NCBI GenBank assembly: GCA_016787995.1
Contig: JAEUTB010000111.1
Coordinates: 14,775 to 78,774 of the forward strand
DNA from: Flavobacteriales bacterium
GTDB taxonomy: Bacteria; Bacteroidota; Bacteroidia; Flavobacteriales_F; PHOS-HE28
DNA: 64,000 nt
Direction of reading: 5' to 3'
The position numbers and the translations under genes are program-made. The notes below the pieces were generated by a model. The model worked only from the letters and a program-made list of their open reading frames with translations. It was not told the origin of the DNA and did no database searches. Positions 30,692-58,017 of this stretch are shown here, one piece after another. Positions within the stretch are counted from its first letter, which is position 1. Every line of letters starts with the position of its first letter.

Positions 30692-30695
30692 CGGA

Positions 30696-33355: not shown

Positions 33356-33434
33356 GTTGCATCCGGAGCCTCCTTCAGTGAGTTTGCTACACTATATCGA
33401 CTTGGGAGTGTCACCGGCCTGACTCGGACCCACT

Positions 33435-34652: not shown

Positions 34653-34668
34653 GTGATTCAGCTACTCC

Positions 34669-38549: not shown

Positions 38550-38559
38550 CGGTCGTTCA

Positions 38560-41500
38560 TCACTTGATCACCAGCCAGGTCACCAGATCGAAGTCATCCG
38601 GTGTGCTGGCCTGCTGTGCGTCGGGGATCAGCAGGGCTTGCCGGTCGTTGCTCAGTTTGGCACCGCTGCGCTTACGGAACAAGCTGGCGATGTCGGCGGT
38701 GGCGCGCTCGATGAGCGCATCGTACTTACCCATGCCATTTTCCGTTTCGCGATTGAAGAGCTCGCACAGTTCCTGGTAGGCTTCCTGCTTGCCTTGGCAC
38801 AGCGAGCGGAAGACTTCCAAGGTCTGCTTCGGCTGGGTAAACCTGAAACGCACGGTGCCATCCTCCCGCACGTACACCAAGAAGTAGGGTGCCGTTACGT
38901 TGATCGCTTCCTTGGCCTTCTGCTGCTCGTCATCGCCACGTTTCCGTTCACGCAGGCAGAGCAGCACACCGGGCTTGATCACGTCCTTGACGCCGGGACT
39001 GAGCAGGTCGTACTGCTTGGCACCCATGGCGTGGCCAGGGGAGGGCACCACGGCATAGAGGCCTTCGGGCGCTTCACGCAGGCGGTCCTCGTTGCCCTTC
39101 AGGAAGTTCAGTAGCTCGGTGCGGAAGTCGTCCAGTGTAAGGTCGGTGAGCGAAAGAGTATCGCCGCTGTCCTCGATGTCCAGCACCTCCTCCTTCAGCT
39201 TCTTCAACTGACGGTTGCGGTACTTCAGATCCTCGCTGATCAGTTCCTCCACCTGTTCGTTGGTGAGCAGGTTGTCATCGGCGGTAGCGGCCAGGTCCAC
39301 CAGCGCCATGCGGGTCTCCACGCGGATCTTCAACTCAATGTACTTGTCCAGGTCCTCGGTGGGCCAGAAGTTCACCAAATGCACGGTGGCGTTGGTGCTG
39401 CCCAGGCGGTCGATGCGGCCGAACCGCTGGATCACGCGAACCGGGTTCCAGTGGATGTCGTAGTTGATCAGGTAGTCGCAGTCCTGCAGGTTCTGGCCTT
39501 CGCTGATGCAATCGCTGGCGATGAGCACATCGATGCAACCTTCCTGCGGCATGTCCTTCTTCAATGCCCGCTGCTTGCTGATGGGGCTGAAGTTGGTGAG
39601 GATGTGGTTGAAGTCGTTACGGCCGAAGGTGGTCTTGTTGTTGGTGCCGGTTACCAGGGCGATGTGGCTTTTCAGCTCATGGGCCACGAACTCCTGCAGG
39701 TTGTCGTAGAGGTACTCCGCCGTATCGGCGAAAGCCGTAAAGACGATGACTTTCTTATTGCCCGGATTGTATTGCTTGATGGCTTTGGCCGCGAGCAGGT
39801 TCTTCAGTTCCTGCAGCTTGGCATCTCGCTTGGCGTCGATGGCCTTGGCTGTGTTGTACAAGCGCACCATGGTCCGTTTGTCGCTAGCCAGCACCTTCAG
39901 CCACTCGTCCAACTTACTTTCCATGTGGGCCAACTTGAACTTCATGCGCTTGCCCACCTCCCATTGCGCATCGTCCTCATCGAAGTCGGTCGTCTCCTCG
40001 CTGTCCGGCTCGGAGGCTTCCAGCTCATCGGCTTCGGCTCGCTTGGCCTGGTACTCCTTGATGCGCTTCTCCAGGTTCTCAATGCGCTGGATGGTGCGGT
40101 CCATGCTCACGGCGAAACTGTGGATGGAGCTTTCCAGTCGTTTGAGGAAGCCCTTCTTCATCATGTGGATGAGCAGGCGTTCGCGCTTTCCCTGGCTGAA
40201 GGGCAGTCCTTCCAAGGCGGCTTGAGTCTCGTAGTGGCTCACCCACTTGTCGTCGATGAAGCGCGAGGGGTTGTAAACCGCCAGCTCGTACTTCAGGATC
40301 TCGTCGTTGATGGCATCGTAGCCCTCGATCCGGTTCTCCAGATCGAGCGCCGGGTAAATGGAGATGGGCTTCGCCCGTTCGGGGAAGTGACCGATGACCT
40401 CCTCCGAGTAGAAGGTCTTGATGTGGTTGCGGCTGCGTGCGATGGTTAGCTCGTCCAGCAGCTTGAAGAAGGCGCTGTCCAATTGCTCCATCAACTGCTT
40501 CACGTTGCGGTCTCGATTGACCGGGTCGGCCCACTTGGTGAACTGGGACTGGGCACGTTTTAGCAATTGTGCGGTCGTATCATCCACGCCTTGGATCAGC
40601 TGGATCTGGTTGCGCAGGTCGCGGAGATTGGTGTTCACGGGCGTGGCCGTGAGCAGGAGCACCTTGCTCTTCACCCCTTCGCTGATGAGCTTCTTCAGTA
40701 GCCAGGCCGTGCGATTGAACTTGTCGTTGCCTTCTTCATCCGTGCGGATCTCCGGATTGCCTCGGAAGTTGTGGCTCTCATCAATAACGATGAGGTCCCA
40801 TGCGCCCCATGGGAAATTGGCCATGTCGAAGCCGTCCACCTCGCTGGTGCCGCGTGTGCGACCCATGTCGGTATGGTACAGAAGCCGGTAGTTGAACTTG
40901 TCCTTCTTGAACGGCGAGAGCGGACTGAGGCGGCGGCTTTGATAGATGGTCCAGTTCTGCGCGAGTTTCTTTGGGCAAAGCACTAGTACGTTCTGTCCGA
41001 GCCCCTCGAAATACTTGATCACGGCCAGCGCCTCGAAAGTTTTCCCGAGACCAACACTATCGGCGATGATGCAGCCGCCGTGCGTCTTGATCTTGTTGAT
41101 GGCGCCTTTCACACCGTCCTTCTGGAAGGCGAAGAGCATGTTCCAGATCTCGCTCTCCAGGAAGCCGGTGCGGTCATCCAGCAGACCGCCTGCTGCCTCG
41201 TCCTTCAAGAATTTCTCGAAGACGTGGTAGAGTGTCTTGAAGTACACGAACTCCGGCGGCGTTTCCGCGAACAGGAGCTTCATATCGTCCAGCACCTTCT
41301 GCTTCACATCTTCCACCAGTCCGGTGTTGTCGTTCCACAACTCTTCGAACCACTGCTTCAACTCCTCTCGGTCCCGGCGATCGTTGATCACCATGTTCAA
41401 CTCCATGTTCGGCGTGCTGCCGCATCCCAAACCTTGTGCGGTGAAGTTGCTGCTCCCGGTGATCGCTTCCTCGGTCTTGTTCGGATTAGCGATGTGGTAG

Positions 41501-41934
41501 AGCTTGCCGTGCAGGAAGTTCGGCCGCACCAAAGATCGTATCTCCACTTTGCGCTGGATCCAATCCGCACAAGCTTTCGCCATGGCCCGCTGCTGTACCT
41601 GTGCGGCCATCTTCAAGCCCTCATCAGTCATTCTGAAATTGCGCCGCGGCTTGTTCTCGTCCTTTACCTTGATGAAAGCTGGATCACCGAAAAGGAAGCG
41701 GAGGTGATCGACGCCCTCGAGTTCTTCCCGCAATTGGGCGTACGCGTTCACCGTGAAGTAGGCACTGACGATACTGAGCGCACTGCCGTCCAGGATCTTC
41801 TCCCTAAGCCAATCGCCAACCTTGCCGTGGTCTCGATTGTCTTTGATGGAAGATAGATGTGTCGTAGTCCTAGGGATCGAAGGGAACAATTGTTCGGGGG
41901 TATTTACTCCGGGTGCAAAGTACCTCAAATGCAC
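38560..41934 (-). CDS. PLD-nuclease domain fused to SNF2/SF2 helicase
   Basis: The N-terminal HKD motif is HGKLYHI...ITGSSNFT. Helicase motifs are ADSVGLGKTF (I), VIDESHNFRG (II), LLTATPVNT (III) and QRFGRIDRLGS (VI). Confidence 0.9.
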   Translation of the reverse strand: MHLRYFAPGVNTPEQLFPSIPRTTTHLSSIKDNRDHGKVGDWLREKILDGSALSIVSAYFTVNAYAQLREELEGVDHLRFLFGDPAFIKVKDENKPRRNFRMTDEGLKMAAQVQQRAMAKACADWIQRKVEIRSLVRPNFLHGKLYHIANPNKTEEAITGSSNFTAQGLGCGSTPNMELNMVINDRRDREELKQWFEELWNDNTGLVEDVKQKVLDDMKLLFAETPPEFVYFKTLYHVFEKFLKDEAAGGLLDDRTGFLESEIWNMLFAFQKDGVKGAINKIKTHGGCIIADSVGLGKTFEALAVIKYFEGLGQNVLVLCPKKLAQNWTIYQSRRLSPLSPFKKDKFNYRLLYHTDMGRTRGTSEVDGFDMANFPWGAWDLIVIDESHNFRGNPEIRTDEEGNDKFNRTAWLLKKLISEGVKSKVLLLTATPVNTNLRDLRNQIQLIQGVDDTTAQLLKRAQSQFTKWADPVNRDRNVKQLMEQLDSAFFKLLDELTIARSRNHIKTFYSEEVIGHFPERAKPISIYPALDLENRIEGYDAINDEILKYELAVYNPSRFIDDKWVSHYETQAALEGLPFSQGKRERLLIHMMKKGFLKRLESSIHSFAVSMDRTIQRIENLEKRIKEYQAKRAEADELEASEPDSEETTDFDEDDAQWEVGKRMKFKLAHMESKLDEWLKVLASDKRTMVRLYNTAKAIDAKRDAKLQELKNLLAAKAIKQYNPGNKKVIVFTAFADTAEYLYDNLQEFVAHELKSHIALVTGTNNKTTFGRNDFNHILTNFSPISKQRALKKDMPQEGCIDVLIASDCISEGQNLQDCDYLINYDIHWNPVRVIQRFGRIDRLGSTNATVHLVNFWPTEDLDKYIELKIRVETRMALVDLAATADDNLLTNEQVEELISEDLKYRNRQLKKLKEEVLDIEDSGDTLSLTDLTLDDFRTELLNFLKGNEDRLREAPEGLYAVVPSPGHAMGAKQYDLLSPGVKDVIKPGVLLCLRERKRGDDEQQKAKEAINVTAPYFLVYVREDGTVRFRFTQPKQTLEVFRSLCQGKQEAYQELCELFNRETENGMGKYDALIERATADIASLFRKRSGAKLSNDRQALLIPDAQQASTPDDFDLVTWLVIK

Positions 41935-42159: not shown

Positions 42160-42921
42160 TCATCTCTCACGATAGGTGAAGTTCATGACATCATCGATCG
42201 TAAGTGCAGGTGCTTTCTCCAGGTTCTTATCATAAGCTATTTCAACTGAGTACTTCTTTTGTTCTTTCTTGATCACGCCCTCTGGATAAGGGCTGATGCC
42301 CCTGAGCTCGATGCCTGCGCGCATGACGGCCATGGCCACTGCGAGTACCGTCTCACGGCCTACCCCTGGATTGTATCGTATGGAATTTGACCTTTCGTTC
42401 CGGTAGGACTCATTATTCACCCACAGTGCCCTGAAGCCGGACGCTCGCAGACTCTCGACCACCTTGTCCCTTTCCGATCGTTTGATGTAGTACCTGATCG
42501 TCGCGAGCACATCCACCTTCTCCCCTTTAAGCAATGTGATCAACCGTGTATGGCTCGTCCTGCTCCTTTCAAGACCTTCAAGGCTCCGATCCAGAGATAC
42601 ACTATCGGCCCACTCCTTAGCAATGAACTTCTTGAAGTCCAAGTCATATCGGTCTATGAGCTGCTTCCAACCTTGTATGCTATCCCGCAAGCCTACTAGC
42701 TCATTCGTTACCTGGATCCGCTCCGACCTAAGGACCATCACGCTGTCCTTTAACTCACGAACCTCACGTTGCGCGCTGATCACACTCTTACTCGAATACG
42801 TAATGAGAGCGAGCGCACCTATAACAGTGAGCACGTTCAAGGTCATCAATCGCCACTTGGATCGCCGCTCCTTGGCATCGATCTTCAAGAGCAGTTCTTG
42901 GAATTCATCCGCTTGCTGCAT
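42160..42921 (-). CDS. coiled-coil / single-TM protein with C-terminal globular domain, unknown function
   Basis: 253 aa. TM helix WRLMTLNVLTVIGALALITY, then a heptad-like region (REVRELKDSVMVLRSERIQVTNELVGLRDS), then a ~130-aa C-terminal domain. Confidence 0.55.
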   Translation of the reverse strand: MQQADEFQELLLKIDAKERRSKWRLMTLNVLTVIGALALITYSSKSVISAQREVRELKDSVMVLRSERIQVTNELVGLRDSIQGWKQLIDRYDLDFKKFIAKEWADSVSLDRSLEGLERSRTSHTRLITLLKGEKVDVLATIRYYIKRSERDKVVESLRASGFRALWVNNESYRNERSNSIRYNPGVGRETVLAVAMAVMRAGIELRGISPYPEGVIKKEQKKYSVEIAYDKNLEKAPALTIDDVMNFTYRER

Positions 42922-42930
42922 GTTCTTTGA

Positions 42931-43299
42931 TCATCCAAGGTTCAACAATCGCTTCATGAGATCCTGCAGGAAAGCGTTGACCTGCTTGGCTTCTTCTTCT
43001 GTTGGTTCTTCCTCCTTGTATTTCTCCAATTTGGTTGCGATAAGCTCCAGGCCGGTAACCACGCCTCTCCGGGCAACCACCTCTTTAACCTGGAATCCTG
43101 AGAGCGTAGCTACAAAGCCTCCACCAAGCTGAATGATGGTTTGTGAGGTGTTGTCATCGCTGATGAAACGACCAACCACAAGCATGATGACACCGAGTAT
43201 GATCACGGCTGCACCGAATATGGCATAGAGCTGGATCGCCTTGTCCTGATCATGTTTGATCCTCCTGACCTCATCGGTGGTGAGAAAAAAGGACGCCAT
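42931..43299 (-). CDS. small two-TM membrane protein
   Basis: 122 aa. Hydrophobic segments are LYAIFGAAVIILGVIMLVVG and IIQLGGGFVATLSGF, followed by an acidic helical tail. There is a 9-nt gap to the next gene. Confidence 0.5.
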   Translation of the reverse strand: MASFFLTTDEVRRIKHDQDKAIQLYAIFGAAVIILGVIMLVVGRFISDDNTSQTIIQLGGGFVATLSGFQVKEVVARRGVVTGLELIATKLEKYKEEEPTEEEAKQVNAFLQDLMKRLLNLG

Positions 43300-43368
43300 G
43301 GAAGTCAGAAGCTTTCAATTGCTCCGAATGTAGCAAATATCAAGCTCGTCAAGTGGAACTTACAGGTA

Positions 43369-45117
43369 CTATACCGACAGATCCTGCTGCGGCGTGTACG
43401 GCTTCGTCACCTTCTTCGTCGGACCACCCGGCAACAACCAATGTTCTTGCAGATCGTTCTTGATGGTCTCGCGCACGAACCGTGAACCTTTCCTATTGAG
43501 GTACACCAACTTGCCGGCCCAGAACAGCAAGCGGTTGAGCCAACCATCGGTGTTCACCAGATCGGTGAGGATCGCGTTGGTGCGCTCGCGCAAGGGAGCA
43601 TCGAAGCGGTCGATGTCCTCGGTACGCCGCATCGGCCAGTTGCAACCACTGTTGGCGAACACCGGCTGCAGCTCTCGTTCGGTCCGTGGCTTGAAGATGG
43701 GGATGATCTGGAAGCCAAGATCGTTCTCTTCTACGGAGCGGAAGAATTCCTGCCGACCCGGGGTCAGCGCCGCATAGGAATCGCGAAAGATGGGGTTCTT
43801 TGTATTCGCGGGCACCGTGAAACTGTCTCGTAAGAATTTCTCGCAGTTGTAACGCCCCAAGAAGTAGTCGTGCACGCGGAACTCCTTGTGCAAGAAACCG
43901 CTGAACCCACCGAGCTGTCCGCAAGCGATGGCGTCTGAGCCCTTAAGGTCCACTCCGGGTGCAATGGAAGTTGGCAGATCACGACTGGGACTGATGAGGA
44001 ACTGACCGGCACCGGCGGATCCCATGGCTTCATCCAAGGTCTTGGGCTTGGTGCGCAGCTGCCCGATCATGGCGCCTAAGGTGTTGCCCATGGTGCGTAA
44101 CAGGGCGTCCTTGCCCTTGAACTCCTCGATGGTGGTGGGGAACGGATCGATCATCAAGATGGTGCCCTTGAAGGTGTCGTAGCTCTGCCGTTCGAAGGCA
44201 TCCTGCTGGCCGGTGCGGTCGCAGATCAACTCGCGCACCCGCTCGAAAGGTTCGTTGTTGATGAGGCCGCCGTCCACGTTCATGGACTTGTACTCGTCCA
44301 CGATCACGGGATTCCGCTCTGTGATCCACCTGAACCACGGGTGATCGTTGATGTAGTCCTTGGGCCGCACCACCTCGCGCGCCTTCAGGCCGACCGGGAA
44401 AGCCGCCGTGGCCATGGCCACTTGGCGGGCGATGGTGACCTGGCGAGGTACGGTGAAGTCCAAGGGGATCCAACCATCGCGCCGTTCTGCATAGGCAGCC
44501 AGGGTGGAGTTGAGCCGGAAGCAGCCATAATCGTTGTGCACCTGCACGTGGTAGGGCTCCATGGCCCGTGTGCGCGAATTGAAGGTGACGCTGTAGTAGA
44601 AACCTTCGAGGTTGGTAAGGGTGCTGAAGACCCGCATATCGTTGGCGATGTACGGACGCGGCACCCAGGAACCAGCACCGCTCAAGGCCCGTTCTGCCGT
44701 GCGGTCTATGAAGGCCGTGTTGAGGAGTGACTTCGTGTAGGACTCTGTGATGTCGTTGGTCAGCAGCATCTGCTGGAACATATCCGGATGGGTAAGGTCC
44801 ACCCAGGTATGGTAGAACAGGTTGTTGGGGCGTTGGGCCATCACATCATCACCCTCTTTCCACTTGGCAGGCTCGATACGGCCATGGAGCGCCGTGGCCG
44901 TGAGCAGGCCGATGATGCCGCCAGCAGAGGCCCCACCGATGTCGCAGATGCGCACTTGGTGCATAGGTGTGTTGGCCGGGTCCCGCACCTTTTCCTGTTC
45001 CCAGATCTCCAGTGCCTCCAACAAATAGTCCATGACACCGGCGGAGTACGCCCCGGCGGATACGGCACCGGCCAGGCAGAGGCCGATCTCAAAAGGTTGC
45101 TTCGGTTCGTTGCTCAT
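43369..45117 (-). CDS. patatin-like phospholipase with long C-terminal extension
   Basis: Start MSNEPKQPFEIGLCLAGAVSAGAY (Gly-rich oxyanion region). The nucleophile elbow is GGASAGG (GxSxG). The catalytic Asp motif is NVDGGLINNEP. About 300 aa follow the catalytic domain. Confidence 0.85.
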   Translation of the reverse strand: MSNEPKQPFEIGLCLAGAVSAGAYSAGVMDYLLEALEIWEQEKVRDPANTPMHQVRICDIGGASAGGIIGLLTATALHGRIEPAKWKEGDDVMAQRPNNLFYHTWVDLTHPDMFQQMLLTNDITESYTKSLLNTAFIDRTAERALSGAGSWVPRPYIANDMRVFSTLTNLEGFYYSVTFNSRTRAMEPYHVQVHNDYGCFRLNSTLAAYAERRDGWIPLDFTVPRQVTIARQVAMATAAFPVGLKAREVVRPKDYINDHPWFRWITERNPVIVDEYKSMNVDGGLINNEPFERVRELICDRTGQQDAFERQSYDTFKGTILMIDPFPTTIEEFKGKDALLRTMGNTLGAMIGQLRTKPKTLDEAMGSAGAGQFLISPSRDLPTSIAPGVDLKGSDAIACGQLGGFSGFLHKEFRVHDYFLGRYNCEKFLRDSFTVPANTKNPIFRDSYAALTPGRQEFFRSVEENDLGFQIIPIFKPRTERELQPVFANSGCNWPMRRTEDIDRFDAPLRERTNAILTDLVNTDGWLNRLLFWAGKLVYLNRKGSRFVRETIKNDLQEHWLLPGGPTKKVTKPYTPQQDLSV

Positions 45118-45181
45118 CGGGGTGTCGAGTATGTTGAATGCATGTTCTGTCGTCAAAGGCCAGGTGGGTAAGTCCTTTCCC

Positions 45182-45862
45182 TCACGGGACCTGCACACCG
45201 GCGGGCACTGCCATGCGCGCCGAGTCGGCCTTCAGCGGTTCAAGTTGCTGTGCGCAGCATTTCACTGGCATTGGCCTGCAAGTGGTCATGGCCGCGTGGC
45301 AGGTGCAGGCGTTGGGTGGCACCATGTGCTTATCGTGTACACCAGAGCCGATGCAGCCATTACTGGAATACGGCGAACGCTTCTTTCTGGGCTTGTGGCT
45401 GGGTGGTGCATCATTCCTATCACATCCGCAGCAGGGGTTCACCAAGTAGATCTCGGGCGCTTGGCAGGGTTCTGCCTTGCATCGGTCGTTGCTCTCGGCT
45501 GCAGTGAATAGTTGATCGATCTTCACGGTAATGGTCTCTAAACGATCGCTCATCCAGCAGAACTGAGCGAAGCCGAACAGCATGGCGACTAGTACCAGGA
45601 AAAAGGTGGCCCAGACCCCACGACGCACTCGGTTGGTGAGGGACCTGAGTTTCTTCTCCCGCTCAGGCGTGGCCTTCGTCTTCTCGACGGCCTCTTCCAG
45701 CGATCTGACCTTCTCACTGAAGTCTTTAAGCTGTCCGGCAAGTGTCTCTTCGGCACTATCGAAGACTTTGTTCCGCTGTCGTATGATCTTGTCAAGGTCC
45801 TCCAGGCGGCTGCGCTGGTCAGAGAGTTCGTTCAAAATATCTTGGAGAGTGGGCGTAGCCAT
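45182..45862 (-). CDS. coiled-coil / TM / Cys-rich extracytoplasmic-tail protein
   Basis: 226 aa. The N-terminal part is helical, followed by the TM helix VWATFFLVLVAMLFGFAQF after RVRRG. The C-terminal ~110 aa hold about 11 Cys (PCCGC, ACTC, KCC). Confidence 0.5.
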   Translation of the reverse strand: MATPTLQDILNELSDQRSRLEDLDKIIRQRNKVFDSAEETLAGQLKDFSEKVRSLEEAVEKTKATPEREKKLRSLTNRVRRGVWATFFLVLVAMLFGFAQFCWMSDRLETITVKIDQLFTAAESNDRCKAEPCQAPEIYLVNPCCGCDRNDAPPSHKPRKKRSPYSSNGCIGSGVHDKHMVPPNACTCHAAMTTCRPMPVKCCAQQLEPLKADSARMAVPAGVQVP

Positions 45863-45891
45863 GTGAATACTGTATTTGTTTTTGGTCGGTC

Positions 45892-48800
45892 TCAGGCCAT
45901 TTCATGGGCCGCGATATTCGTGTCCAGGGCTTTCAGGCGCCTGCGGTAGAGTGAGGTTCCAGCATTGGATCTGCCCTGTACCACCCTGCGTTCAATGGCG
46001 CAGGAAAAGTGGTAGAGGTTGTCGGCGTAATCATCCTCCAGAAAAAAGAGATCGCCAATGAGGCGTCGTAGGTGCTTCCCGCCGTTGTGCACGCCCATGC
46101 CCCGCGAGAGGTCTTCCCGGGCGAGGGTGTAGTGCATCAAGGGGTCAAGCCGGTTCTCCACGTTGCCATCGGCCCAACGACTAACATCCGCATGGATCTC
46201 CGCTGCGGCCGCCCTTACATCCGCAGAGCCTGGGGAGGAGATCGGATAGGTCTCCATGCTGCGGAGCAAGGCTGTCCAGTTGCCCAAGCGCATACGCGCT
46301 AAGGCTATCCGGGTATGGTTATTCACGAAACTGATGCCCGAGAGGTTGAAGATGTTGATGAGGTGGAAACAACAGTGGATGGAATCAGCCACGAGTTCGC
46401 GGATACTTTCACGGCCTGGCATGTGCGCGTTCAAGGGTAGTGCCGCCCCGATATGGCGATTCCAGGCATACACCGGAGTCGTGCCATCGAAGATGCCGCT
46501 GCGGGCAAGGTCCGCTCGTATCCAGTTGTACTGCACTGTGAGCTCCAGCAGCAGGGCTCGTGTGAACTGTAGGGTGACTAGGTGTTTGTGCACCATCAGG
46601 AATTCCCGTGCGTCATCCAAGGCGCGCGCAAGTGGCGGTCCGGGTTGGCGATGTGTCAACTGCAAGCGATGCCAGAGGATGTCCAGCTCCACCAGTTCAG
46701 CTTGGTAGGAGATACCACGAACGGACCGCACTGCGGATGCTCCGGCTGAAGGGTACACGATGGGCTTTGGTGATTTGGAGCGTTGCTGCACATCGATGTG
46801 CCCGTTGTATTTGTGCACGGTGGCCACGGCCCAGCGTTTCAGATCCAAGACTTGGTCCAAGGCATTCGCGGAAAGCGAAGTCCCATTGGTATCCAACATC
46901 ACGAATAGCAACTTCTTCAATTGAAAGACGGCCTGGAACGATTGACCGCTTTCGGCATATGCGCGTGCCGAAAGCAAAAGGAAATACGCCACTTGCCCAT
47001 ATTGGGTATCGGCGAGGATCCAGTTGACCCGTATCCCCATGAATTCGTTCGAAGTGGGGTCGGGGTATGCTTCGGCGTAACCCTCTGCGATCAGTGCATC
47101 TGCATACTTGGAAATCGCGCTGGCTGCGAGTTGATGTGTGGCGTTCGTCGTCTGGTCATCGGCAAGACCAGAGGTCATCCACCGCTGGTGGTCGAGCCGA
47201 TTCTCAGGTTGTCGAAGGAGCCTAAGGGCACGTTCCCACTGATTCGTCTTCGTTGTATCGAGCAGATGGTCTACGGCGGTTCGATAAAGAAGGAGAGAGT
47301 CCTCCTTCATCTGCCCCGGTATCAGCGAAGGTCTGTTGGGTTCGTGTTTCAGGCGCAGATTGCTGAAAAAGAGAATGGAGCCAGCCTGGGTGGTGGCCAT
47401 GGACAGGAAGCGTGGTAGGGCAAAATTCCTTGGTCTGGACATGTTCTTCTTGGCGATAGCCTGGGTGAACTTGTAGATCCAATCCACCGATGCATACACG
47501 GTGGTCATGCTTTGTGCTTTCACCCGGAGCGCCAACGCATACTGCATGGTCAGGCTGAGCAATCGTATGTCCAGCCTTCTTACGTCCACATTGTAAGCCC
47601 TTTGATCATTTCCAGCGGGGACTCTCCGGACCACGTCGAGGATCAGTTCGCACAAGGAGCTCACGGTGATCACGGCTTCGTCCATCGCCTTTATCCGCTC
47701 GAGACAATGAGCCTCCTTCAGCTTCAACCGAACGTATTCGTGGAAATGATCCAACTCGAAGTGCTTTCCTCGATGTGCGCTGCGCTCAAAGTGCAGAGCC
47801 GCTGAACGATAATGCTCCAGCGCATCTGCATGTTCGGCATCGTAGAAGTGAAGATCACCTAGCTGTGCGTGTAGGTCACTGATCGGCTGGATGCCCCATT
47901 CCTTCTGCACCACGTTAGTTTCCTTGAACTGCCGGTGCAGATCCTTCAAGCGTTTGTTGAACAATTGTTTTACGGCTTGGGACTCGTCCAACGTGAAGTT
48001 CATAGCAGCCGAATCCAGTTCAGAGACCTTGGAGAAGTAGGCGATCTCCTGGTAGGTCTTGGCGAAGAATACATAGCCGTAAAGTCCGTTGTCTATAGTT
48101 CGCAGATGCTGATCGGATAGGCGCAGCAGGATGTCGCTGATGTATTTCCGCACTTCGGGCACCTTGTTCAAGGCAATGGCCTCGGGTGCCATTTCCAAGT
48201 GGGCAAAGCTGAACGCGTTAGGGTGGAATTTGAAAAGGTGGTCGAGCAGGTAGGTGAGCGAGACGAGTTGCTTGTCGTTGAGCGATCGGTAGTAGTGCGA
48301 GTGGATGCTGGTGAAGGGGCGGCAGAAGTAGGTCATCAGCATATGCGCATGTTGAGCCGTTGCGTCGAGCCGCAAAAAGAGGCCGGGGCCATCATACCCC
48401 AGGTCCATCACCAGGTTGTTCGGATCCTGGCGTAAGCGATCCAAGGCCTGCTTGCTTTCCACCGGATACATACTGCGCTCGTAGAGCTGCATGAGCTTCT
48501 TTGGGATCCCATTGCTGCGGAAGGTGAGGTAGATGGCATAGTTCTGGACGGCTGAAAGCATCTGGTCCAGCTGCTCCTGCGCCAGTTGTCGGTCAGGTTG
48601 TGCGAACAACCAGTTCCGATACGAAGCGCTGACATCGTTAATGCGCACCATGCGCGCACCGGGCTGGCGAAGTTGCTCCACTAGGCTGCGCGGTAGCAGG
48701 GTTTCTAGTACGAACCGTTCGGTGGTGGTAGTGAGCCCGCTGCGTTCACTGTCCCCATCGCGTTGGCGCTCCTTCAAGAAGGTGGGCACGTAGACCACGT

Positions 48801-50178
48801 GGTTGAACACACTACTGAAGAAGGCGTCACGGTTGCTTGTATCGGCCATGACCGCATCGAACATCTCCCGGCTACCGATGAAGATGAACTTGGCTTGGGC
48901 CACGTTCAGGAAGTGCTTCAAGTTGGCGAACAGCGCAGCGATGGCCTCCTGCCGCCGCCGGTAGTGGTAGGCGGCGAAACTTGTATGGCGTTGCTCCTCA
49001 TGTTCGTCATCTGTTAGGTCCTGGTCGTCCTTCTGCATCACCCCGGTCGGCGCTCGCGGCGTGAGTTTGTCCAGTTCATCGACTAGGAACACGATCCGGT
49101 TGTGACCTTGCCGGTATCGCGGTTGATCATACTCCACCTTCGTGAGGCGGCAGAGTAATCGCATGGCCCACTCGGGCAATATGGGGGGACTGTGGGAGTC
49201 CATGATACCGAACTGGTCGAGGATGTCGGTCAGCTCGATCTCGATCTCCTTGGTCTTCGCGATCGGATAGGAGACGCTCTTACGCCTACCAAAGGCGAAA
49301 GGATTGTAGGTGGCACCTTGCAGCCCACGCACATCCTCGGTGGTCACCGATGCACCGATGCGGGCGATAAGCAGTTGTAGGCGGTCCTTCAAGCGCGAGG
49401 TGGATCGATCGATGCGATCCTGGAAGGTCCTTCGCAACAACTGGCGCCAGACCCAATAGGTGAATAGGCCCACCAAAGCGGGTAGGAGGAACACATCCAC
49501 GAAGCGCATCCAGTAGTACCCGTCCTGCTCTGCCTTGATCGGTCCGAGCCCGTGCATGACCAGGCCATCCGTGCAGACGAGGCCTGCTCGGGGCGTTGTT
49601 GTGGAACCGCCCGCTGGAACCTCGTGGTGACAAGGCCCCATGGTGGTGAACAGGACATGCGGGCCGATGTGCGGCAGCGCCACGAAGAACGCGCCGATGC
49701 CGAAGAGATAGGGCAGCACCCTGCACGCCATCCCGACCCTGTCCCACGGCCGCATCCGGATACGCCCCATGACCTCGAGCAACTTCACCGCCATCAAGCG
49801 CAGGATGGCGCGCTGGTCGATCTCATCCTCCGCTAGGTTGATCTCCAGGTGATGTACCCGAACCTCACCGGGTCCGCCAAGGTCCCAGACCAGCTTCTTC
49901 CAAAAATTCCTCCGAAGTCCCATGGTGGACTCCTTGTTGAGCTTTCGCAGGACGTTGCGTGTCAGACTCGTCTTACCCACACCGCGATAGCCCGTGACCA
50001 GGATGGAGCCGCTCCTATTGGCCGTATTATCAAGGATACGCGCCTTCAGATGCGCTTCGATCGTGCTGCGCTCGATGTACTTATCATCGCCATCCAACGA
50101 CACGTTCCCCGCTTGTGGCGAGTCGTAGAACTTGTACCACGGCAGTCGGATGTAGAGGTTCGGAATATGATTACGCAT
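45892..50178 (-). CDS. giant KAP/PifA-type P-loop NTPase with ~1000-aa helical-repeat C-terminal region
   Basis: Walker A is GYRGVGKTS (49966-49992). Two hydrophobic helices lie at ~49645-49728 and ~49441-49503. Walker B, RIVFLVDELD (49072-49098), follows them. This insertion topology is the KAP family hallmark. Confidence 0.75.
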   Translation of the reverse strand: MRNHIPNLYIRLPWYKFYDSPQAGNVSLDGDDKYIERSTIEAHLKARILDNTANRSGSILVTGYRGVGKTSLTRNVLRKLNKESTMGLRRNFWKKLVWDLGGPGEVRVHHLEINLAEDEIDQRAILRLMAVKLLEVMGRIRMRPWDRVGMACRVLPYLFGIGAFFVALPHIGPHVLFTTMGPCHHEVPAGGSTTTPRAGLVCTDGLVMHGLGPIKAEQDGYYWMRFVDVFLLPALVGLFTYWVWRQLLRRTFQDRIDRSTSRLKDRLQLLIARIGASVTTEDVRGLQGATYNPFAFGRRKSVSYPIAKTKEIEIELTDILDQFGIMDSHSPPILPEWAMRLLCRLTKVEYDQPRYRQGHNRIVFLVDELDKLTPRAPTGVMQKDDQDLTDDEHEEQRHTSFAAYHYRRRQEAIAALFANLKHFLNVAQAKFIFIGSREMFDAVMADTSNRDAFFSSVFNHVVYVPTFLKERQRDGDSERSGLTTTTERFVLETLLPRSLVEQLRQPGARMVRINDVSASYRNWLFAQPDRQLAQEQLDQMLSAVQNYAIYLTFRSNGIPKKLMQLYERSMYPVESKQALDRLRQDPNNLVMDLGYDGPGLFLRLDATAQHAHMLMTYFCRPFTSIHSHYYRSLNDKQLVSLTYLLDHLFKFHPNAFSFAHLEMAPEAIALNKVPEVRKYISDILLRLSDQHLRTIDNGLYGYVFFAKTYQEIAYFSKVSELDSAAMNFTLDESQAVKQLFNKRLKDLHRQFKETNVVQKEWGIQPISDLHAQLGDLHFYDAEHADALEHYRSAALHFERSAHRGKHFELDHFHEYVRLKLKEAHCLERIKAMDEAVITVSSLCELILDVVRRVPAGNDQRAYNVDVRRLDIRLLSLTMQYALALRVKAQSMTTVYASVDWIYKFTQAIAKKNMSRPRNFALPRFLSMATTQAGSILFFSNLRLKHEPNRPSLIPGQMKEDSLLLYRTAVDHLLDTTKTNQWERALRLLRQPENRLDHQRWMTSGLADDQTTNATHQLAASAISKYADALIAEGYAEAYPDPTSNEFMGIRVNWILADTQYGQVAYFLLLSARAYAESGQSFQAVFQLKKLLFVMLDTNGTSLSANALDQVLDLKRWAVATVHKYNGHIDVQQRSKSPKPIVYPSAGASAVRSVRGISYQAELVELDILWHRLQLTHRQPGPPLARALDDAREFLMVHKHLVTLQFTRALLLELTVQYNWIRADLARSGIFDGTTPVYAWNRHIGAALPLNAHMPGRESIRELVADSIHCCFHLINIFNLSGISFVNNHTRIALARMRLGNWTALLRSMETYPISSPGSADVRAAAAEIHADVSRWADGNVENRLDPLMHYTLAREDLSRGMGVHNGGKHLRRLIGDLFFLEDDYADNLYHFSCAIERRVVQGRSNAGTSLYRRRLKALDTNIAAHEMA

Positions 50179-50336
50179 GGATCCTCGTTTCGTCCTTGTT
50201 CCTTGCTCCGATTAGGATCAACGTGCTTGCTGCCGGTCTTTCACCGTGCGGAGGAACTCCTCATCCACCTTCTTCGCGGTCCTTCGGATGCTGGTGCCGC
50301 CAGCATGCGGCTCTAAACCACCTTGGATCATCCACC

Positions 50337-50957
50337 CTACCATGTTGTATCAAAATGAGTTGTTTGGCGCCGGAATTCGAATGACCCGAACAACGGCTCG
50401 TTCGGCGGAAGTTGCCAATAGTTACCCTTCACATTGTTATCATCAAGAACCTCTCCTTCTGCATAGCCCTTTAGGTGTGTATCCTCTTTGGTTATCTCAT
50501 ATGTATAAGCGATCCTGTGGTCGCTGATGAAATCACCCCAAGATGTTTGCCACTGATACGGGATATCCAAGGTGACCTGTTTCACCACCTTTCCCGAAGT
50601 GTCTTTCACTTCTTCCCAGAGCCTGTTGCCTTGCAATTTCCATTGCAGGCCGTTCGCCGTGGTGACCAGTGAGATCTCGCACACCCCGCCATGGTTCTTC
50701 ACCTTTGACTTACAGCGATACTTGTACTTTCCGACAATCCGGGAGTACTCATTCAATTGCTTGGCCGTGATGGTGTTCGGTGTGCCTTCACTAACCACCT
50801 TGATGTATTGCTCAAGAAACGGCAATCTGATCTGCTGTCCATTCAATCTCAACCAGAATATGATCGTAAGGATGAAGAAGAAGATGAGCAGCAAAAGGAT
50901 CAGAGCGTCCTTGGGTTGGCGTTTGGCAAAACCCCATATTCTATTCGCGAGCTCCAT
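50337..50957 (-). CDS. N-terminal-TM, beta-strand-rich protein, unknown function
   Basis: 206 aa. TM segment ALILLLLIFFFILTIIFWL is followed by alternating aromatic and polar beta-like segments (YKYRCKSKV, WKLQGNRLW, AYTYEITK). Confidence 0.55.
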   Translation of the reverse strand: MELANRIWGFAKRQPKDALILLLLIFFFILTIIFWLRLNGQQIRLPFLEQYIKVVSEGTPNTITAKQLNEYSRIVGKYKYRCKSKVKNHGGVCEISLVTTANGLQWKLQGNRLWEEVKDTSGKVVKQVTLDIPYQWQTSWGDFISDHRIAYTYEITKEDTHLKGYAEGEVLDDNNVKGNYWQLPPNEPLFGSFEFRRQTTHFDTTW

Positions 50958-51038
50958 CAGTTCGAATTTTGTTCCAGCCCTCTGCCATGGTTGTTCGGAT
51001 CAACACTCCTTCACGTTCATCGAGGGAACTGGAGATCC

Positions 51039-51881
51039 TCAATTGTTCTTCTTCGCCTTATCTATGGTCTGTGTAAAGACACTCATACCGACGGCAACTC
51101 CGAACCAAGGCTGGCCTTGGTAACGCCAACCGGAGTCATCATCGAATAGCATGTCCCAGCCAATGAACACTCCAAATTGTATCCTATCACGGTCCACGAC
51201 CAATCCTATTGGAAGGGTCAGTGCTGCACGCTCCTTGCTTTCCTTGACTTCGCCATTCGTATTAAGGCTGTCCACTGTGATGGAACTGAACGCCGCGCCA
51301 AGGCATAGTGCGATGCCATTATCCCTAGACCCATTGAGCCGAATACCTCCTATACCACCCAGTGAGACATCTTTTGTGACTACGCCACTCTGTGGGCGGT
51401 ACTTAAAAGGGAGTACTGCCGTACCAAATATGGCCGAGAGTCCGCCACCCTCGAAGGGTACCGCGTTCTGCTTCAGTTCATCCGCCGTGATGAGAAAGTA
51501 GCGATCAGCTTCACGCTCTCCCGCAGCGATCTTTTCCGGATCGTAATTATATCGATAGGCCATTTCCTCTTCGTGTTCGCGGAGATCACGATCCCACCAG
51601 TACGCCCGGTACTTGGTCTTTGTCTTGAGGGTGGTGCTCGTCGCCCAATCATAAAAAGCGACCACGTAGGCGCTTGGCGCAACCCCTTGGGGTCCTATGC
51701 TCCTAACCAGTGTGAACTTCGCGGAATATGGGCATAGTCGATGAACATAACCTCCGGTGTCGCCAATGATAGAACATTCGTGAAGGATGACATCATTGGC
51801 CAACTGATACTCCTTGCTTTCCTGGGTCATGCTCCACAGCGATGCTTGTGCAGCTGCAATGAATAGTAGTGCCCTTTTCAT
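51039..51881 (-). CDS. secreted beta-rich protein (possible outer-membrane or porin-like)
   Basis: Internal start MKRALLFIAAAQASLWS is a signal peptide. The C-terminal half is Gly/aromatic-rich with alternating segments (GGLSAIFGTAVLPFKY, WFGVAVGMSVF). Confidence 0.55.
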   Translation of the reverse strand: MKRALLFIAAAQASLWSMTQESKEYQLANDVILHECSIIGDTGGYVHRLCPYSAKFTLVRSIGPQGVAPSAYVVAFYDWATSTTLKTKTKYRAYWWDRDLREHEEEMAYRYNYDPEKIAAGEREADRYFLITADELKQNAVPFEGGGLSAIFGTAVLPFKYRPQSGVVTKDVSLGGIGGIRLNGSRDNGIALCLGAAFSSITVDSLNTNGEVKESKERAALTLPIGLVVDRDRIQFGVFIGWDMLFDDDSGWRYQGQPWFGVAVGMSVFTQTIDKAKKNN

Positions 51882-51984
51882 GGTGCGAGAGATAACGGAT
51901 GGTTCCTGCATGTCTTCGAGCAATCGTCTTCTGTATTCGACATTCTATAAAATGTGGTATCCAGGATTTGGCACATTATTCCAT

Positions 51985-53571
51985 TCACTTCGGAAAATTC
52001 CCCCGCGCGAATTCCTCCGCATTCCTGTGACAGATCCCCTCCACCGCGTGCTCCACGGCGGTGGTGGAGGTGAGGTGGTGCAGGCAGCTGGGTGGGTTGG
52101 CACTTTGCCGTTCGTGGTCGATGGCGGCGATGAGCTGGGCGCGGAAGTCGGCGAAGAAGAGGGCCGTGGGGTATGGGTCAACGGGGTCTATCCAGCCTTC
52201 GAAGTCGGTGCCGATGGACAGGCACTCCCAGATGCGGTGTTTCTCGGCCAGGGGGAATTCACTGTCGGGTTTTCCATAGACCACCTCGAGTATGGCCTTG
52301 ATGTTGGCCCAGAGGATGGTGATGTCGTTCTCGGCATTGGCACGCACACCCACGATGCGTTGGTCGAAGCTGAGACCGATAAGGCCGTTCGTGCGGTGGA
52401 CGAGAAGGACATCCTCGTCGCAGATGTTGATGTTCCAGCGGTTGAAGCGGCTGCCCGGTGCGGTGGCGCCGTCCTTTTCGTCACCGCTCTGGGCGATGAG
52501 TTGCTGCAGGGTCTTGACACCCGTGTAGGCCACATGGCTGGCGATCACGGGGATCACATCGGGGGTTGACCGCTCAAGTCCTGGCCGCACCACGCTCTCG
52601 TAGTATTCATGCCGCGCCTTGGCGCTCATGTGCTTCACGTCGATCAGGATGCGGTAGCCTGCCGCAGGGTCCGGGTCGCCACTCTCCTTGATCGAGAGGA
52701 TGCGCCGGAGCACGCGCCAGCCTTCGGGCGTGAAGCCCTCGTTCATCTGGACCTCCTGCCCCATGATGTAGGTGGCCTTGCCCGGGAAGCTGTGCGCATG
52801 GCCACAGAGCTTGTTGGCGAAGTGGTGCGCGAACGTGATGAAGAGGATCGGATGGTCCCATTGTTTCACGCGGTCCACGTTGGCCAGCCAGTCGGTGACC
52901 GTGCCGCGGTCCGTGCCCAGCGCGTGCCCGCCCTCGATGGTGAGGATCATGGCCACCTTGTCCGCAGCGAGAGCATTGACCAGCTGGGCCTTGGTGCGCG
53001 GGATCACGTAGGTGCCGGTGGCGTCCAGTTCATTCGGATAGTCGCGTCGCCGCTTGCGCTCGCTCTCGAAGATGTTGCGCACCGTGGTGGGCGTGAGGAT
53101 GCTGTTGCGCGTTTCCACCCCATCCTTCAGCGTGGCGAAGGCGTACTCTTCGTTGAGGTAGTCCCAGTAGCTGTACGATGCGCTCTGGAAGTGGTCGATG
53201 GCCGCATCGGGGATCCACATCACGAAGAACTGCAGGTAGTCGCGTAGCGGAAGCACCTGCGAGGTGAAGGCGCGCGTGAGCGCTTTGTACCAGCGGTCGG
53301 CCCCGGTGATGCCCTGCATGTCGATGGAGAAGAAGCCTTTCTCCACGGGGTACAGCGCGTTGAAGGTCAGGCGCACCTTCCCGTTCCAGAGCTTCACCAG
53401 ATCGGCCTGGGCGTACTTGCTGGCCATCTTGCGTCCGTTGAGCGCTGCCCGGCTGTCGCTCACGATGGTCCAGGGGTGGTATTCGCCCTTGCGCTCGTAG
53501 CGTTCGCGCTGGTGGCGCATCCACAAGAAGCCCTTGGTGTGGTTGTGGGCGTGCAGGTCCGCGAAGCGCAT
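51985..53571 (-). CDS. membrane-dipeptidase (M19)-like metal-dependent hydrolase
   Basis: The motif series is ADLHAHNH, ILTIEGGHALG, ITFAHHFANK, IDVKHMS, VIASHVAY and IGTDFEGW. It parallels the M19 DGHND / EGG / DxSH / SHS / GxDFDG pattern. Confidence 0.6.
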   Translation of the reverse strand: MRFADLHAHNHTKGFLWMRHQRERYERKGEYHPWTIVSDSRAALNGRKMASKYAQADLVKLWNGKVRLTFNALYPVEKGFFSIDMQGITGADRWYKALTRAFTSQVLPLRDYLQFFVMWIPDAAIDHFQSASYSYWDYLNEEYAFATLKDGVETRNSILTPTTVRNIFESERKRRRDYPNELDATGTYVIPRTKAQLVNALAADKVAMILTIEGGHALGTDRGTVTDWLANVDRVKQWDHPILFITFAHHFANKLCGHAHSFPGKATYIMGQEVQMNEGFTPEGWRVLRRILSIKESGDPDPAAGYRILIDVKHMSAKARHEYYESVVRPGLERSTPDVIPVIASHVAYTGVKTLQQLIAQSGDEKDGATAPGSRFNRWNINICDEDVLLVHRTNGLIGLSFDQRIVGVRANAENDITILWANIKAILEVVYGKPDSEFPLAEKHRIWECLSIGTDFEGWIDPVDPYPTALFFADFRAQLIAAIDHERQSANPPSCLHHLTSTTAVEHAVEGICHRNAEEFARGNFPK

Positions 53572-53577
53572 GGCGGC

Positions 53578-54651
53578 TCAGTATTGGAACACGGTGGTCT
53601 TGCCGTTCAACACCTCCTTCACATCGTGCACGACACTCGGGCTGTTCATGTAGTACCAATGGTGCGCGATGTTCTCTCGAAGGGTCTTGTCATCCGAGAT
53701 GTAACTGACATCGGCTTGGATCACGCCGTCCGGCAGGGGCACGGTGCGCCGGGCTCCCCAACGTCCCAGTCGATTGAAAGCGTTCTTGGTGCGTTCACTG
53801 ATCCCCAACGCCTTGTCCTCGTTGTGGTAGTACACGTGCATGCGCTCGCCCAGCATGATGGCATTGTGCAGGGGTTTGCCCGGCTCCAGACCATCATCAT
53901 CCACATCGGCGGCCATCAGGAGGATCTCGCCGAAGACACTGTTGGGGCGCACGTTACGCGCGAAGAGTTCGGCCATCATGCTCTCGAACACCCGGTTGCC
54001 CATGCTGTGGCACATCAGGTGGATCTTCTGGGCGCAGAAGACGTTGTTCATGTCCTTCACCCTTCGCTTTCGTGCTGCCGTGACCAGGTCTTGGAAGAAA
54101 CTGGTCATGGACTGGAAAGAGCGCGCCATGGCGTAGCCGGTCTTCACGGCATCGCGTGCATCATCCCGGTACCGGGTGAGGCTGCCGCGTGATGGCCAAG
54201 TGAAGAGGATGATGTGCCCGATCGGGCTATCAGCCGGTGCCACGTAGCGCTCGTGAAGGTCGGCCAGTGTGGTGAGCGCGCCTTTGAGGTCACTGTTGTA
54301 GCCGTGGACGAAAACGAGGAAGTGGCCTTCGCCGGCCTTGTCAGCCTTCCCCGTGGCATGGAGTTCCTCGAACACCTGTATGCTGGGCGGTACCACCCCT
54401 GCTGGATACTTGCCATGGAGCTCTTTGTACTCCATTTCGGCATCGGAGAGGTCGGGGAGGATCTCGATCTTGAAATCGTCCAGGTTGCGCGCCTTCGCCG
54501 GATCGAAGGTGACCGTGCCGTACCGCAGGTTGTCCATAGCCTCTTCCTTGCCATCGGCGCGCAGGCATTCACTCCTATTCACGGAGACGTACCCGCCCTT
54601 GCGGCTACCTTTGATGATCTGGCGGTTAGTGATGATGTAATGCGTTGCCAT
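53578..54651 (-). CDS. alpha/beta hydrolase, DUF900-like
   Basis: Internal start MATHYIITNRQ. Motifs are FLVFVHGYNSD...ILFTWPS and the nucleophile elbow LMCHSMGNRV. Confidence 0.7.
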   Translation of the reverse strand: MATHYIITNRQIIKGSRKGGYVSVNRSECLRADGKEEAMDNLRYGTVTFDPAKARNLDDFKIEILPDLSDAEMEYKELHGKYPAGVVPPSIQVFEELHATGKADKAGEGHFLVFVHGYNSDLKGALTTLADLHERYVAPADSPIGHIILFTWPSRGSLTRYRDDARDAVKTGYAMARSFQSMTSFFQDLVTAARKRRVKDMNNVFCAQKIHLMCHSMGNRVFESMMAELFARNVRPNSVFGEILLMAADVDDDGLEPGKPLHNAIMLGERMHVYYHNEDKALGISERTKNAFNRLGRWGARRTVPLPDGVIQADVSYISDDKTLRENIAHHWYYMNSPSVVHDVKEVLNGKTTVFQY

Positions 54652-56057: not shown

Positions 56058-56248
56058 GGTGGTGGTCTCCTCCTCTACTGTTCGTGCACCGTGCACGAGC
56101 AGTGGGTCAAACCTCATGCTCCTAAGCGCCCTTCACCAAGCGCCGAGGGGGGGCGATCCACCGGGGTGTTCCCCGCAATTCACCCGGGCAAGGGTGTGGC
56201 GGATGGTGCGGAAGACTTAACACACGATTCGGTGGACTTGTCCTAAAC

Positions 56249-57805: not shown

Positions 57806-58017
57806 CGGCTCGTTCGTTCCACCGCGTTGATCGGCAGGTGCTGCGACGAACGCTGTTCTATGGAACGCGCGCGCGAGGCACCGATGGTGCGCGTAACGCT
57901 GGCGCGTGATCCGTGGAAGGTGCACATGCTGTTCGGATGGGAGGCACCGGCGCGGCGGGGTAGGCAACTGCCAGCAAGAGTGGTGCAACTCTCCGGGCAG
58001 GGTGCGCACCTGCTCAT

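Follow-up and report, generated by a model that had tools for sequence, protein, structure and literature searches.

Does the compact run of genes at 42.1-56.1 kb of a 64,000-nucleotide (nt) stretch of Flavobacteriales DNA, called the window here in its whole length, encode one phage-defense system, or has it been put together from units that are inherited separately? A preliminary description, made from the letters alone, took seven consecutive minus-strand open reading frames (ORFs) for a single membrane-centered module, a candidate defense system built around a giant KAP/PifA-type NTPase and a patatin lipase. The seven ORFs, their spacing (gaps of 9, 69, 64, 29, 158, and 81 nt), and the quoted motifs were all confirmed at the coordinates listed below. 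On the same strand the array runs further upstream to 56117, with gaps of 6-61 nt between the added genes; the boundaries of the described module were arbitrary, and its limit at 51923 is not the end of the array. In full, the array consists of 11 genes and one gene relic, a 37-amino-acid (aa) ORF, separated by 6-158 nt. Comparison with sequences from other genomes (loci coded L001-L140) leads us to a reading that we hold with middling confidence, namely that 42.1-56.1 kb is a mosaic of exchangeable units in a defense island and that its NTPase is a self-sufficient, membrane-anchored sensor.

42160-42921, minus strand: g253, 253 aa
42931-43299, minus strand: g122, 122 aa
43369-45117, minus strand: patatin, 582 aa from its ATG; the ORF extends to a GTG at 45198
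45182-45862, minus strand: g226, 226 aa
45892-50178, minus strand: NTPase, 1428 aa
50218-50331, minus strand: 37-aa ORF between g206 and the NTPase gene
50337-50957, minus strand: g206, 206 aa
51039-51881 or 51923, minus strand: g263, signal peptide and β-rich domain
51985-53571, minus strand: M19-like amidohydrolase
53578-54651, minus strand: DUF900 α/β-hydrolase
54677-55396, minus strand: g239, multi-transmembrane (TM) 239-aa protein
55410-56117, minus strand: SH3-CHAP amidase

The mosaic would comprise the NTPase, possibly with g226, as a first unit, a lineage-conserved patatin lipase as a second, the g122-g253 membrane pair as a third, and a swappable hydrolase cassette (CHAP, multi-TM, DUF900, M19-like, g263, and g206) as a fourth. 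The ratios of nonsynonymous to synonymous divergence (dN/dS) against relatives are low, 0.05-0.14, for the NTPase, patatin, CHAP, g122, and g253, and these are therefore taken to be real genes. A scan for sigma-70 promoters and terminators returned chance-level matches, the sigma-70 model being uninformative for Bacteroidota.

The mosaic structure emerges from comparison with L004, whose NTPase is 83% identical to that of the window and which keeps CHAP (91% aa identity), the NTPase, a g226 homologue, and the patatin. Its genes run in the order CHAP, a 398-aa protein, Peptidase_S8, a 758-aa protein, a 57-aa ORF, a 37-aa ORF, a trypsin-like peptidase, NTPase, g226 homologue, patatin, a g206 paralogue, a WYL regulator, an AAA_15 ATPase, and a Type I restriction-modification (RM) system. 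DUF900, the M19-like gene, g263, g122, and g253 are missing, and where the window has its M19-like, DUF900, and multi-TM genes, L004 has the 398-aa protein, Peptidase_S8, the 758-aa protein, and the trypsin-like peptidase. Neither g206 nor g263 occupies the same position in L004, the g206 paralogue (29% identity) lying downstream of the patatin there. At the upstream edge of the NTPase gene, the 37-aa ORF at 50218-50331 matches the C-terminus of an intact trypsin-like protein in L004 (257 aa) with 93% identity over 29 aa, and it is within this ORF that the window-L004 DNA alignment resumes. By this alignment the ORF is a 3′ relic of a trypsin-like peptidase gene and a recombination scar at the upstream cassette edge. 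Since the relic matches the L004 gene, the upstream cassette, including g263 and g206, must have taken the place of a peptidase gene formerly adjacent to the NTPase gene; g263 and g206, which the preliminary description had placed in the NTPase module, belong instead with that cassette.

A second exchange is visible downstream of this scar. Synonymous divergence (dS) between the window and L004 is 0.47 for CHAP, 0.46 for the patatin, 0.36 for the C-terminal half of g226, and 0.80 for NTPase residues 1-850, compared with 2.4-2.7 (saturated) for NTPase residues 851-1428 and ~2 for the N-terminal half of g226. This roughly six-fold difference between adjacent segments indicates that recombination replaced one block, comprising the NTPase solenoid and the g226 coiled coil. 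The hypervariable block corresponds to 45182-47628 (minus strand) in the window and 7271-12259 in L004 and is 50-72% identical, flanked by NTPase residues 1-850 at 90-100% aa identity and the patatin at 96%, with the C-terminal half of g226 lower. The g226 gene is the only one that stays beside the NTPase gene in both genomes with this subtype, the window and L004; its N-terminal half varies with the NTPase C-terminus, and its C-terminal half travels with the patatin. That the N-terminal half was replaced together with the solenoid suggests that the two proteins may interact physically. No conserved g226-like downstream partner was found at the other NTPase loci.

The remaining units separate in other genomes. 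L054 and L055 retain the patatin, g122, and g253 (93, 92, and 95% identity) without the NTPase and g226, within a gene set that also includes proteins of 176 and 287 aa and, besides the 582-aa patatin, a second one of 307 aa. Despite the absence of the NTPase, the L054 patatin, g122, and g253 are under strong purifying selection (dN/dS ~0.05-0.12). The 582-aa patatin is 93-96% identical among three related genomes, in surroundings that differ. The g122-g253 pair occurs on its own in L136 (40 and 50% identity), where it adjoins a transglycosylase, a Type I RM system, and an AAA_15 ATPase and converges with a caspase/HExxH-protease/metallo-β-lactamase/patatin operon, and in L137 (69 and 57%), where EcoEI_R_C and NA37 genes follow; in all the loci examined (L054, L136, and L137) a g122 homologue immediately precedes g253. 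Gene content is variable in presence and absence between strains that differ by a dS of ~0.5. Judged by this distribution, the set breaks into at least four separately occurring units and is not one co-inherited system. The preliminary description had itself named a lack of co-conservation as grounds for giving up its seven-gene module, and a lack of co-conservation is largely what L004, L054, and the NTPase and patatin loci described below display.

The patatin assignment itself held up, with a Pfam Patatin (PF01734) score of 38.2 bits against a cut-off of 27.7 and with the G61-G-A-S64-A-G-G and D282-G-G motifs invariant in a 13-member alignment. The protein carries a C-terminal extension of ~250 aa and no signal peptide. 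A PDB sequence search with it returned nothing, and its match to the PADLOC phospholipase effector model reached an E value of only 0.028. Its family comprises more than 1382 proteins at 45-52% identity, mostly from Bacteroidota. Across ~77 loci of this family no generally conserved neighbor was found and an NTPase homologue was detected in none; the patatin is usually solitary or lies among unrelated or housekeeping genes. An M19-like gene converges with the patatin in L052, and a 758-aa-like gene lies directly upstream of it in L096; in L092 (1798-8638, plus strand) an operon next to a convergent WYL regulator comprises a gene like that of the 307-aa patatin, a 398-aa-like TM protein, three small genes, and an M19-like gene together with the patatin. 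These neighbors indicate that members of the swappable cassette recur beside patatins that lack the NTPase. Two-component genes of the HisKA_3/GerE type flank the patatin in L052 and L054. The L136 operon (10800-17181, minus strand) encodes a caspase C14, a 634-aa HExxH protein, a metallo-β-lactamase, a 182-aa protein, and a patatin; taken with L092, it suggests a recurrent, undescribed theme of patatins with assorted hydrolases in Bacteroidota defense islands.

In its intact Ser-Asp dyad and its place in a defense island, the window patatin is reminiscent of CapV of CBASS, and phospholipid hydrolysis would be a plausible killing route. It differs from CapV as a 582-aa, Bacteroidota-type protein with the long C-terminal extension. 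No CD-NTase, SAVED, or other signal-generating gene was found among the 11 array proteins, and no CBASS component rose above PADLOC noise; the earlier statement that the module holds no CD-NTase, SAVED, TIR, or Sir2 domain was borne out by Pfam.

Could the whole array from CHAP to g253 nevertheless be one multi-effector abortive-infection system, in which the NTPase is a switch that activates or releases the patatin and the hydrolases, and in which cassettes diversify the output? We regard this as somewhat unlikely. It would account well for the eleven genes and relic packed on one strand and for L004, which keeps the CHAP...NTPase-g226-patatin frame and trades DUF900 and the M19-like gene for subtilisin- and trypsin-like peptidases, one hydrolase set for another. 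It would also accommodate the patatin relatives that have a WYL regulator or homologues of the M19-like, 398-aa, and 758-aa proteins beside them (L052, L092, and L096), as well as the L136 pair abutting another patatin/caspase/metallo-β-lactamase operon. A second, independent NTPase-patatin adjacency occurs in L017 (8859-15838, plus strand, a Bacteroidales chromosome), where a 348-aa patatin is encoded 56 nt upstream of a 1958-aa NTPase homologue; this patatin is of the classical, CapV-like kind (DGGGIRG, GTSTG, and DGG) and is unrelated to the subfamily in the window. Against a single system stand the purifying selection on the L054 patatin, g122, and g253 where no NTPase exists, and the ~77 patatin loci, most of them without partner genes. 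In ~40 NTPase loci other than L004, moreover, tblastn found none of the other ten array proteins of the window, and L017 alone has a patatin, an unrelated one. Nor do the proteins have an adaptor domain in common: all-against-all BLASTP between the array proteins and the cassette proteins of L004, L054, and L052 found no shared segments at BLAST-level sensitivity, the only matches being the g206 paralogue, the trypsin-gene relic, and expected orthologues, and the NTPase has no N-terminal adaptor domain, its Walker A motif beginning at residue 63.

The narrower notion that the patatin is a dedicated effector of the NTPase, with wiring from sensor to lipase, is weakly favored; the L017 adjacency and the L004 frame speak for it, and L054 and the ~40 NTPase loci without a patatin speak against it. 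Under the mosaic reading, this hotspot most likely gathered the patatin, the hydrolases, and g122-g253 as genes independent of one another, each directed at the membrane or envelope. These genes may cooperate loosely, although the data do not require it. A tight same-strand array in a defense island, here made up of at least four units, need not be one system.

The first of these units centers on the NTPase, in which hydropathy and a structural model both bear out the earlier claim of hydrophobic helices between Walker motifs A and B of a P-loop NTPase. Its features, from N- to C-terminus, are as follows.

49969-49992, minus strand: Walker A, GYRGVGKTS (G63-YRGVGK69-T70), invariant in homologue alignments A1 and A5
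49435-49737, minus strand: membrane insert, hydrophobic helices at residues ~148-182 and ~224-248 with a loop of ~45 residues, by hydropathy
49063-49089, minus strand: Walker B, FLVDELDKL (F364-L372), on modeled strand 361-367
45895-47628, minus strand: C-terminal α-solenoid, residues 851-1428, all-helical repeats in the AlphaFold2 (AF2) model

Within Walker B, residues D367, E368, L369, D370, and K371 are invariant in the same two alignments. The AF2 model of residues 1-860 folds into a P-loop sheet broken by two long helices, 144-176 and 222-257, which fall between β-strands 108-114 and 361-367, followed by helical domains. Arg-rich stretches border the membrane insert on both sides, an arrangement that suggests a hairpin with the NTPase domain on the cytoplasmic side. 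After the insert comes a helical core, conserved over ~490 aa (residues 360-850), in which NFTLDES, RSNG, and LGDLH are invariant motifs of its own. The AF2 model of residues 840-1428 is an α-solenoid of TPR- or toroid-like appearance (predicted template modeling score, pTM, 0.80), and a Foldseek search of the PDB with it returned only TPR- or toroid-type repeat proteins, all weak save one designed tandem-repeat protein (E = 8.5e-4). The solenoid is 50-72% identical to that of L004 while residues 1-850 are 90-100% identical, and we regard it as a putative sensor that is hypervariable between close relatives.

By sequence, the protein falls outside described families. Among the products of the seven-gene module only the patatin exceeds its Pfam cut-off, and the small proteins are without any match; for the NTPase every family stays below its cut-off, the best match being AAA_16, with 30.9 bits against 32.6 and confined to residues 37-84. 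A PDB sequence search with the NTPase found nothing beyond the P-loop. Of ten array proteins scanned (all save g239), none matched a PADLOC-DB v2 model above noise, and M19-like, DUF900, and CHAP had zero matches; the best match of the original seven, in a scan at E<=0.1, was that of the NTPase to the SspF P-loop (E = 8e-4). The view that the seven proteins correspond to no named system thus stands with respect to PADLOC-DB v2.

A word-indexed search had recovered only 19 relatives of the NTPase. With residues 1-860 as the query, phmmer against 1.84 billion representatives gave 1040 hits at E<=1e-3; the 595 that reached E<=1e-30 correspond to a family of ~600 clusters at 50% identity. Almost all are proteins of 1300-2400 aa. 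In species-representative genomes, 44 loci were located in Bacteroidota, Ignavibacteria, Calditrichia, Acidobacteriota, and Myxococcota. Nearly every full-length member has the same layout, with Walker A at ~54-143, Walker B at 282-985, and 2-12 hydrophobic segments between them (counted in full-length homologues with identifiable Walker motifs, two of which fall below the hydropathy threshold). On the evidence of alignments and models, this is an unnamed family, without a Pfam or PADLOC model, that combines a P-loop domain, a membrane insert, a helical core, and an α-solenoid. No neighbor family is conserved across the 44 loci, and about one-third of the homologue genes have no operonic neighbor at all. 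Since the NTPase is solitary in most genomes, it is probably self-sufficient. When 146 flanking proteins were run against Pfam, the Bacteroidota half yielded three Type I R subunits and one patatin, whereas the Acidobacteriota/Myxococcota half yielded housekeeping genes only.

In the closest subfamily, defined by two TM helices, a length of ~1400 aa, and at least 33% identity, six of the eight loci adjoin defense genes, five of the six adjoin RM genes, and one lies inside a Type I RM operon.

Window: defense island, with a Type IIG methyltransferase and HKD-Snf2 beside the array
L004: Type I RM, AAA_15, and WYL
L003: hsdR and hsdMS at a distance of 3 kb
L007: hsdR and a YgjP-like gene immediately before the homologue
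L009: hsdM, hsdS, RelA_SpoT-like, DUF4357, NTPase, 247-aa two-TM protein, and hsdR (Type I operon)
L005: DUF1643, DUF4357, PLD, and DprA-helicase
L139: housekeeping genes
L140: no defense neighbors seen

In the L009 locus (5064-17622, a Flavobacteriales metagenome-assembled genome), four genes, the NTPase homologue among them, lie between hsdS and hsdR, and a DUF4357 gene flanks the homologue there as well as in L005. A place within a Type I RM operon is classic for abortive-infection genes that guard RM, as exemplified by PrrC, the defense gene embedded in the Type I RM operon of the prr locus. The L009 homologue between hsdS and hsdR and the L007 homologue beside hsdR are placed in a PrrC-like manner. 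The NTPase differs from PrrC in that it has no anticodon-nuclease or other nuclease domain, and the window copy lies by the Type IIG and HKD-Snf2 genes, outside a Type I operon.

The NTPase architecture is reminiscent of Tmn/YobI. Tmn is a P-loop NTPase with two inserted TM helices and solenoid arms that senses a phage protein and collapses the cytoplasm through ATP-driven Mg2+ export and plasmolysis (PMC13001434). Like Tmn/YobI, the window NTPase is a single large protein whose P-loop domain takes up two TM helices after Walker A and which has an α-helical solenoid region of the kind proposed to sense phage proteins and variable between homologues, and both are linked with other defense systems. 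The likeness is one of architecture only, the NTPase being known here from sequence and models. PADLOC-DB v2 contains a Tmn model, and neither Pfam YobI nor any PADLOC model matched the NTPase at E<=0.1 beyond the SspF P-loop; the NTPase is also much larger (1428 aa) and has the ~490-aa conserved helical core.

The KAP/PifA label of the preliminary description fared less well. KAP NTPases (PF07693) reportedly occur sporadically, often near RM genes, and are said to have TM helices inserted within the P-loop domain, a trait that hydropathy and the AF2 model place in the window NTPase as well. They resemble it further as membrane-associated P-loop NTPases, with TM segments in or next to the NTPase domain and long C-terminal regions. 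Some fusion proteins of the EF_KAP type protect against phage by experiment (PMC13552941). The Pfam KAP_NTPase profile, however, scores 19.4 bits against a cut-off of 20, aligning only over the P-loop (positions 7-48 of 293), and matched none of five long homologues at E<=0.01; a precomputed PF07693 hit exists for 1 of the 19 homologues (P0012). A profile alignment (hhalign) of A1 with F-plasmid PifA (L138:12446-14671) covered 28 P-loop columns at 5.7% probability. Membership in the KAP/PifA family was rejected on these results, the agreement being one of architecture alone.

STAND/Avs (AAA_16) proteins may share with the NTPase a tripartite logic of NTPase, helical domain, and repeat sensor, of which the repeat region is present and hypervariable, and the top Foldseek match, non-significant, is a STAND-TPR protein. 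The NTPase differs in having no separate effector domain, in carrying the TM hairpin within the NTPase domain, and in its sub-threshold AAA_16 score. Ternary conflict systems have a MoxR-vWA or GTPase core and adaptor domains common to the NTPase and the effectors (PMC7159879, Kaur et al. 2020). No MoxR, vWA, or GTPase domains were found in the array proteins, and BLASTP of array against cassette proteins detected no shared adaptor (EAD-like) domains, so the array was not assigned to this class.

By analogy with Tmn and the KAP fusions, we infer a mechanism in which the NTPase would be held in the inner membrane by the TM hairpin within its P-loop domain. The fast-evolving C-terminal α-solenoid would bind a phage-derived protein, and binding would trigger NTP-dependent oligomerization or a conformational change. 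The output would be exerted on the membrane, as ion or solute efflux or as permeabilization, which the membrane-spanning g226 may mediate or tune, and phage replication would be halted as the end result. Membrane-associated phage defenses are poorly understood, and Tmn and the KAP fusions were shown to be anti-phage only in 2026. The NTPase family is a third, sequence-unrelated lineage in which a P-loop domain split by a membrane hairpin is joined to a fast-evolving solenoid; if it is a defense family, the hairpin-plus-solenoid design would be a recurrent way of coupling phage sensing to the membrane. The NTPase would also be a testable single-gene candidate for Bacteroidota, in which defense systems are under-studied.

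Several observations weigh against the mosaic reading with its self-sufficient sensor. The AF2 model of residues 1-860 is only moderately confident (predicted local distance difference test, pLDDT, 66.8), and a Foldseek search of the PDB with it gave zero hits at E<=1e-3, the weak matches being to STAND-TPR, ORC/Cdc6, TnsC, and RdrA (best 6mfv, E = 6e-3, TM-score 0.10-0.13). Distant homologues with 10-12 TM segments, from Acidobacteriota and Myxococcota, sit among housekeeping genes, and two of the eight loci of the closest subfamily (L139 and L140) show no defense neighbors; the wider family may not be dedicated to defense. The tight same-strand array, the frame kept in L004, and the L017 adjacency also fit a single multi-effector system. 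The defense function of the family is putative.

A bolder proposal holds that STAND-like NTPases anchored in the inner membrane by a hairpin are a new class of membrane-resident phage sensors, and that, in this Bacteroidota lineage, sensor and g226 together gate exchangeable, cytoplasmic enzymes that degrade the envelope. The gated arsenal would consist of the patatin, the CHAP amidase, the lipase, and the peptidases, one switch serving many exchangeable effectors. We consider this proposal unlikely as a whole.

The setting of the mosaic lends support to the defense interpretation: of the preliminary description, candidacy for defense was upheld by the strong island context of the array, whereas the seven-gene unit was not supported. 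The array at 42.1-56.1 kb forms one end, the one rich in effectors, of a 28-kb Bacteroidota defense island, and it is contiguous with seven recognized defense or RM genes. These run downstream of the array at 27.8-42 kb (27836-41934, minus strand), with the following PADLOC matches.

MkoA: MkoA-like SF1 helicase, with an AbiU2 HEPN protein
NsnA: NsnA/GmrSD-HNH fusion
PDC-S19: DUF3644-EC042_2821
PDC-S26: PDDEXK_4
Type IIG: Type IIG-like Eco57I/TaqI_C methyltransferase, paired with HKD-Snf2
HKD+Snf2: HKD(PLD)-Snf2 helicase, model C3a139, E = 1e-121

An envelope-remodeling, lysis, or lipid-turnover locus, made up of a peptidoglycan amidase, a dipeptidase-like enzyme, lipases, and membrane proteins under adjacent LuxR-type regulators, with the NTPase as a membrane-complex assembly factor, is quite improbable. 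It would suit a patatin family that many Bacteroidota carry, mostly among unrelated or housekeeping genes, the regulatory genes on either side of the patatin (GerE-type response regulators in the window, HisKA_3/GerE two-component genes in L052 and L054), and the housekeeping surroundings of distant NTPase homologues. This explanation is opposed by the contiguity with seven defense or RM genes, the variable presence of genes among strains at dS ~0.5, the NTPase homologue embedded in a Type I RM operon, the hypervariable solenoid, and the cytoplasmic hydrolases, whose lack of signal peptides (CHAP, DUF900, M19-like, and patatin) is unexpected for routine envelope maintenance.

The small proteins of the mosaic have mostly N-in topology with periplasmic domains, and g253, g226, and g206 have one hydrophobic segment each. 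In g226 a coiled coil is followed by one TM helix and then by a Cys-rich, probably periplasmic tail. The g122 protein, first of the conserved g122-g253 pair, is a two-segment TM hairpin; its candidacy as a SLATT/CyanoTRADDas_TM pore protein was rejected, the hits (E = 0.006-0.03) not being reproduced in two diverged members and reflecting a TM-composition artefact. Its partner g253, single-pass and N-in, combines a coiled coil with a C-terminal domain of α/β type, and only 3 homologues of it were found in 5.8 billion proteins. A TM helix and a β-rich domain make up g206, and g263 has a signal-peptide-like MKRALLFIAAAQASLWS if its start is at 51881.

The window, from a Bacteroidota genome, encodes Por_Secre_tail, CHU_C, and SprB proteins. 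For the NTPase as for the patatin, the closest relatives with a name come from high-GC Flavobacteriales metagenome-assembled genomes. A mobile-element origin was considered and rejected, with zero relatives in IMG/VR viral contigs and PLSDB plasmids and no tRNA in the window. At 18156-24368 (minus strand), 3.5 kb from the island edge, lie three tandem paralogues of 652, 665, and 692 aa, all with a class III adenylate/guanylate cyclase domain (PF00211, E = 1e-56 to 1e-61) and two of them with N-terminal TPR repeats as well; class III cyclases serve in Pycsar-type defense systems. On the other side of the array, a 21-bp tandem repeat of 17.5 copies (89% matches) at 58017-58383, within the ORF at 57827-59263 (plus strand), accounts for a heptapeptide array, (QGVQLSV)n, within a 478-aa protein, and its copy number may differ among strains, since L001 aligns at several repeat offsets.

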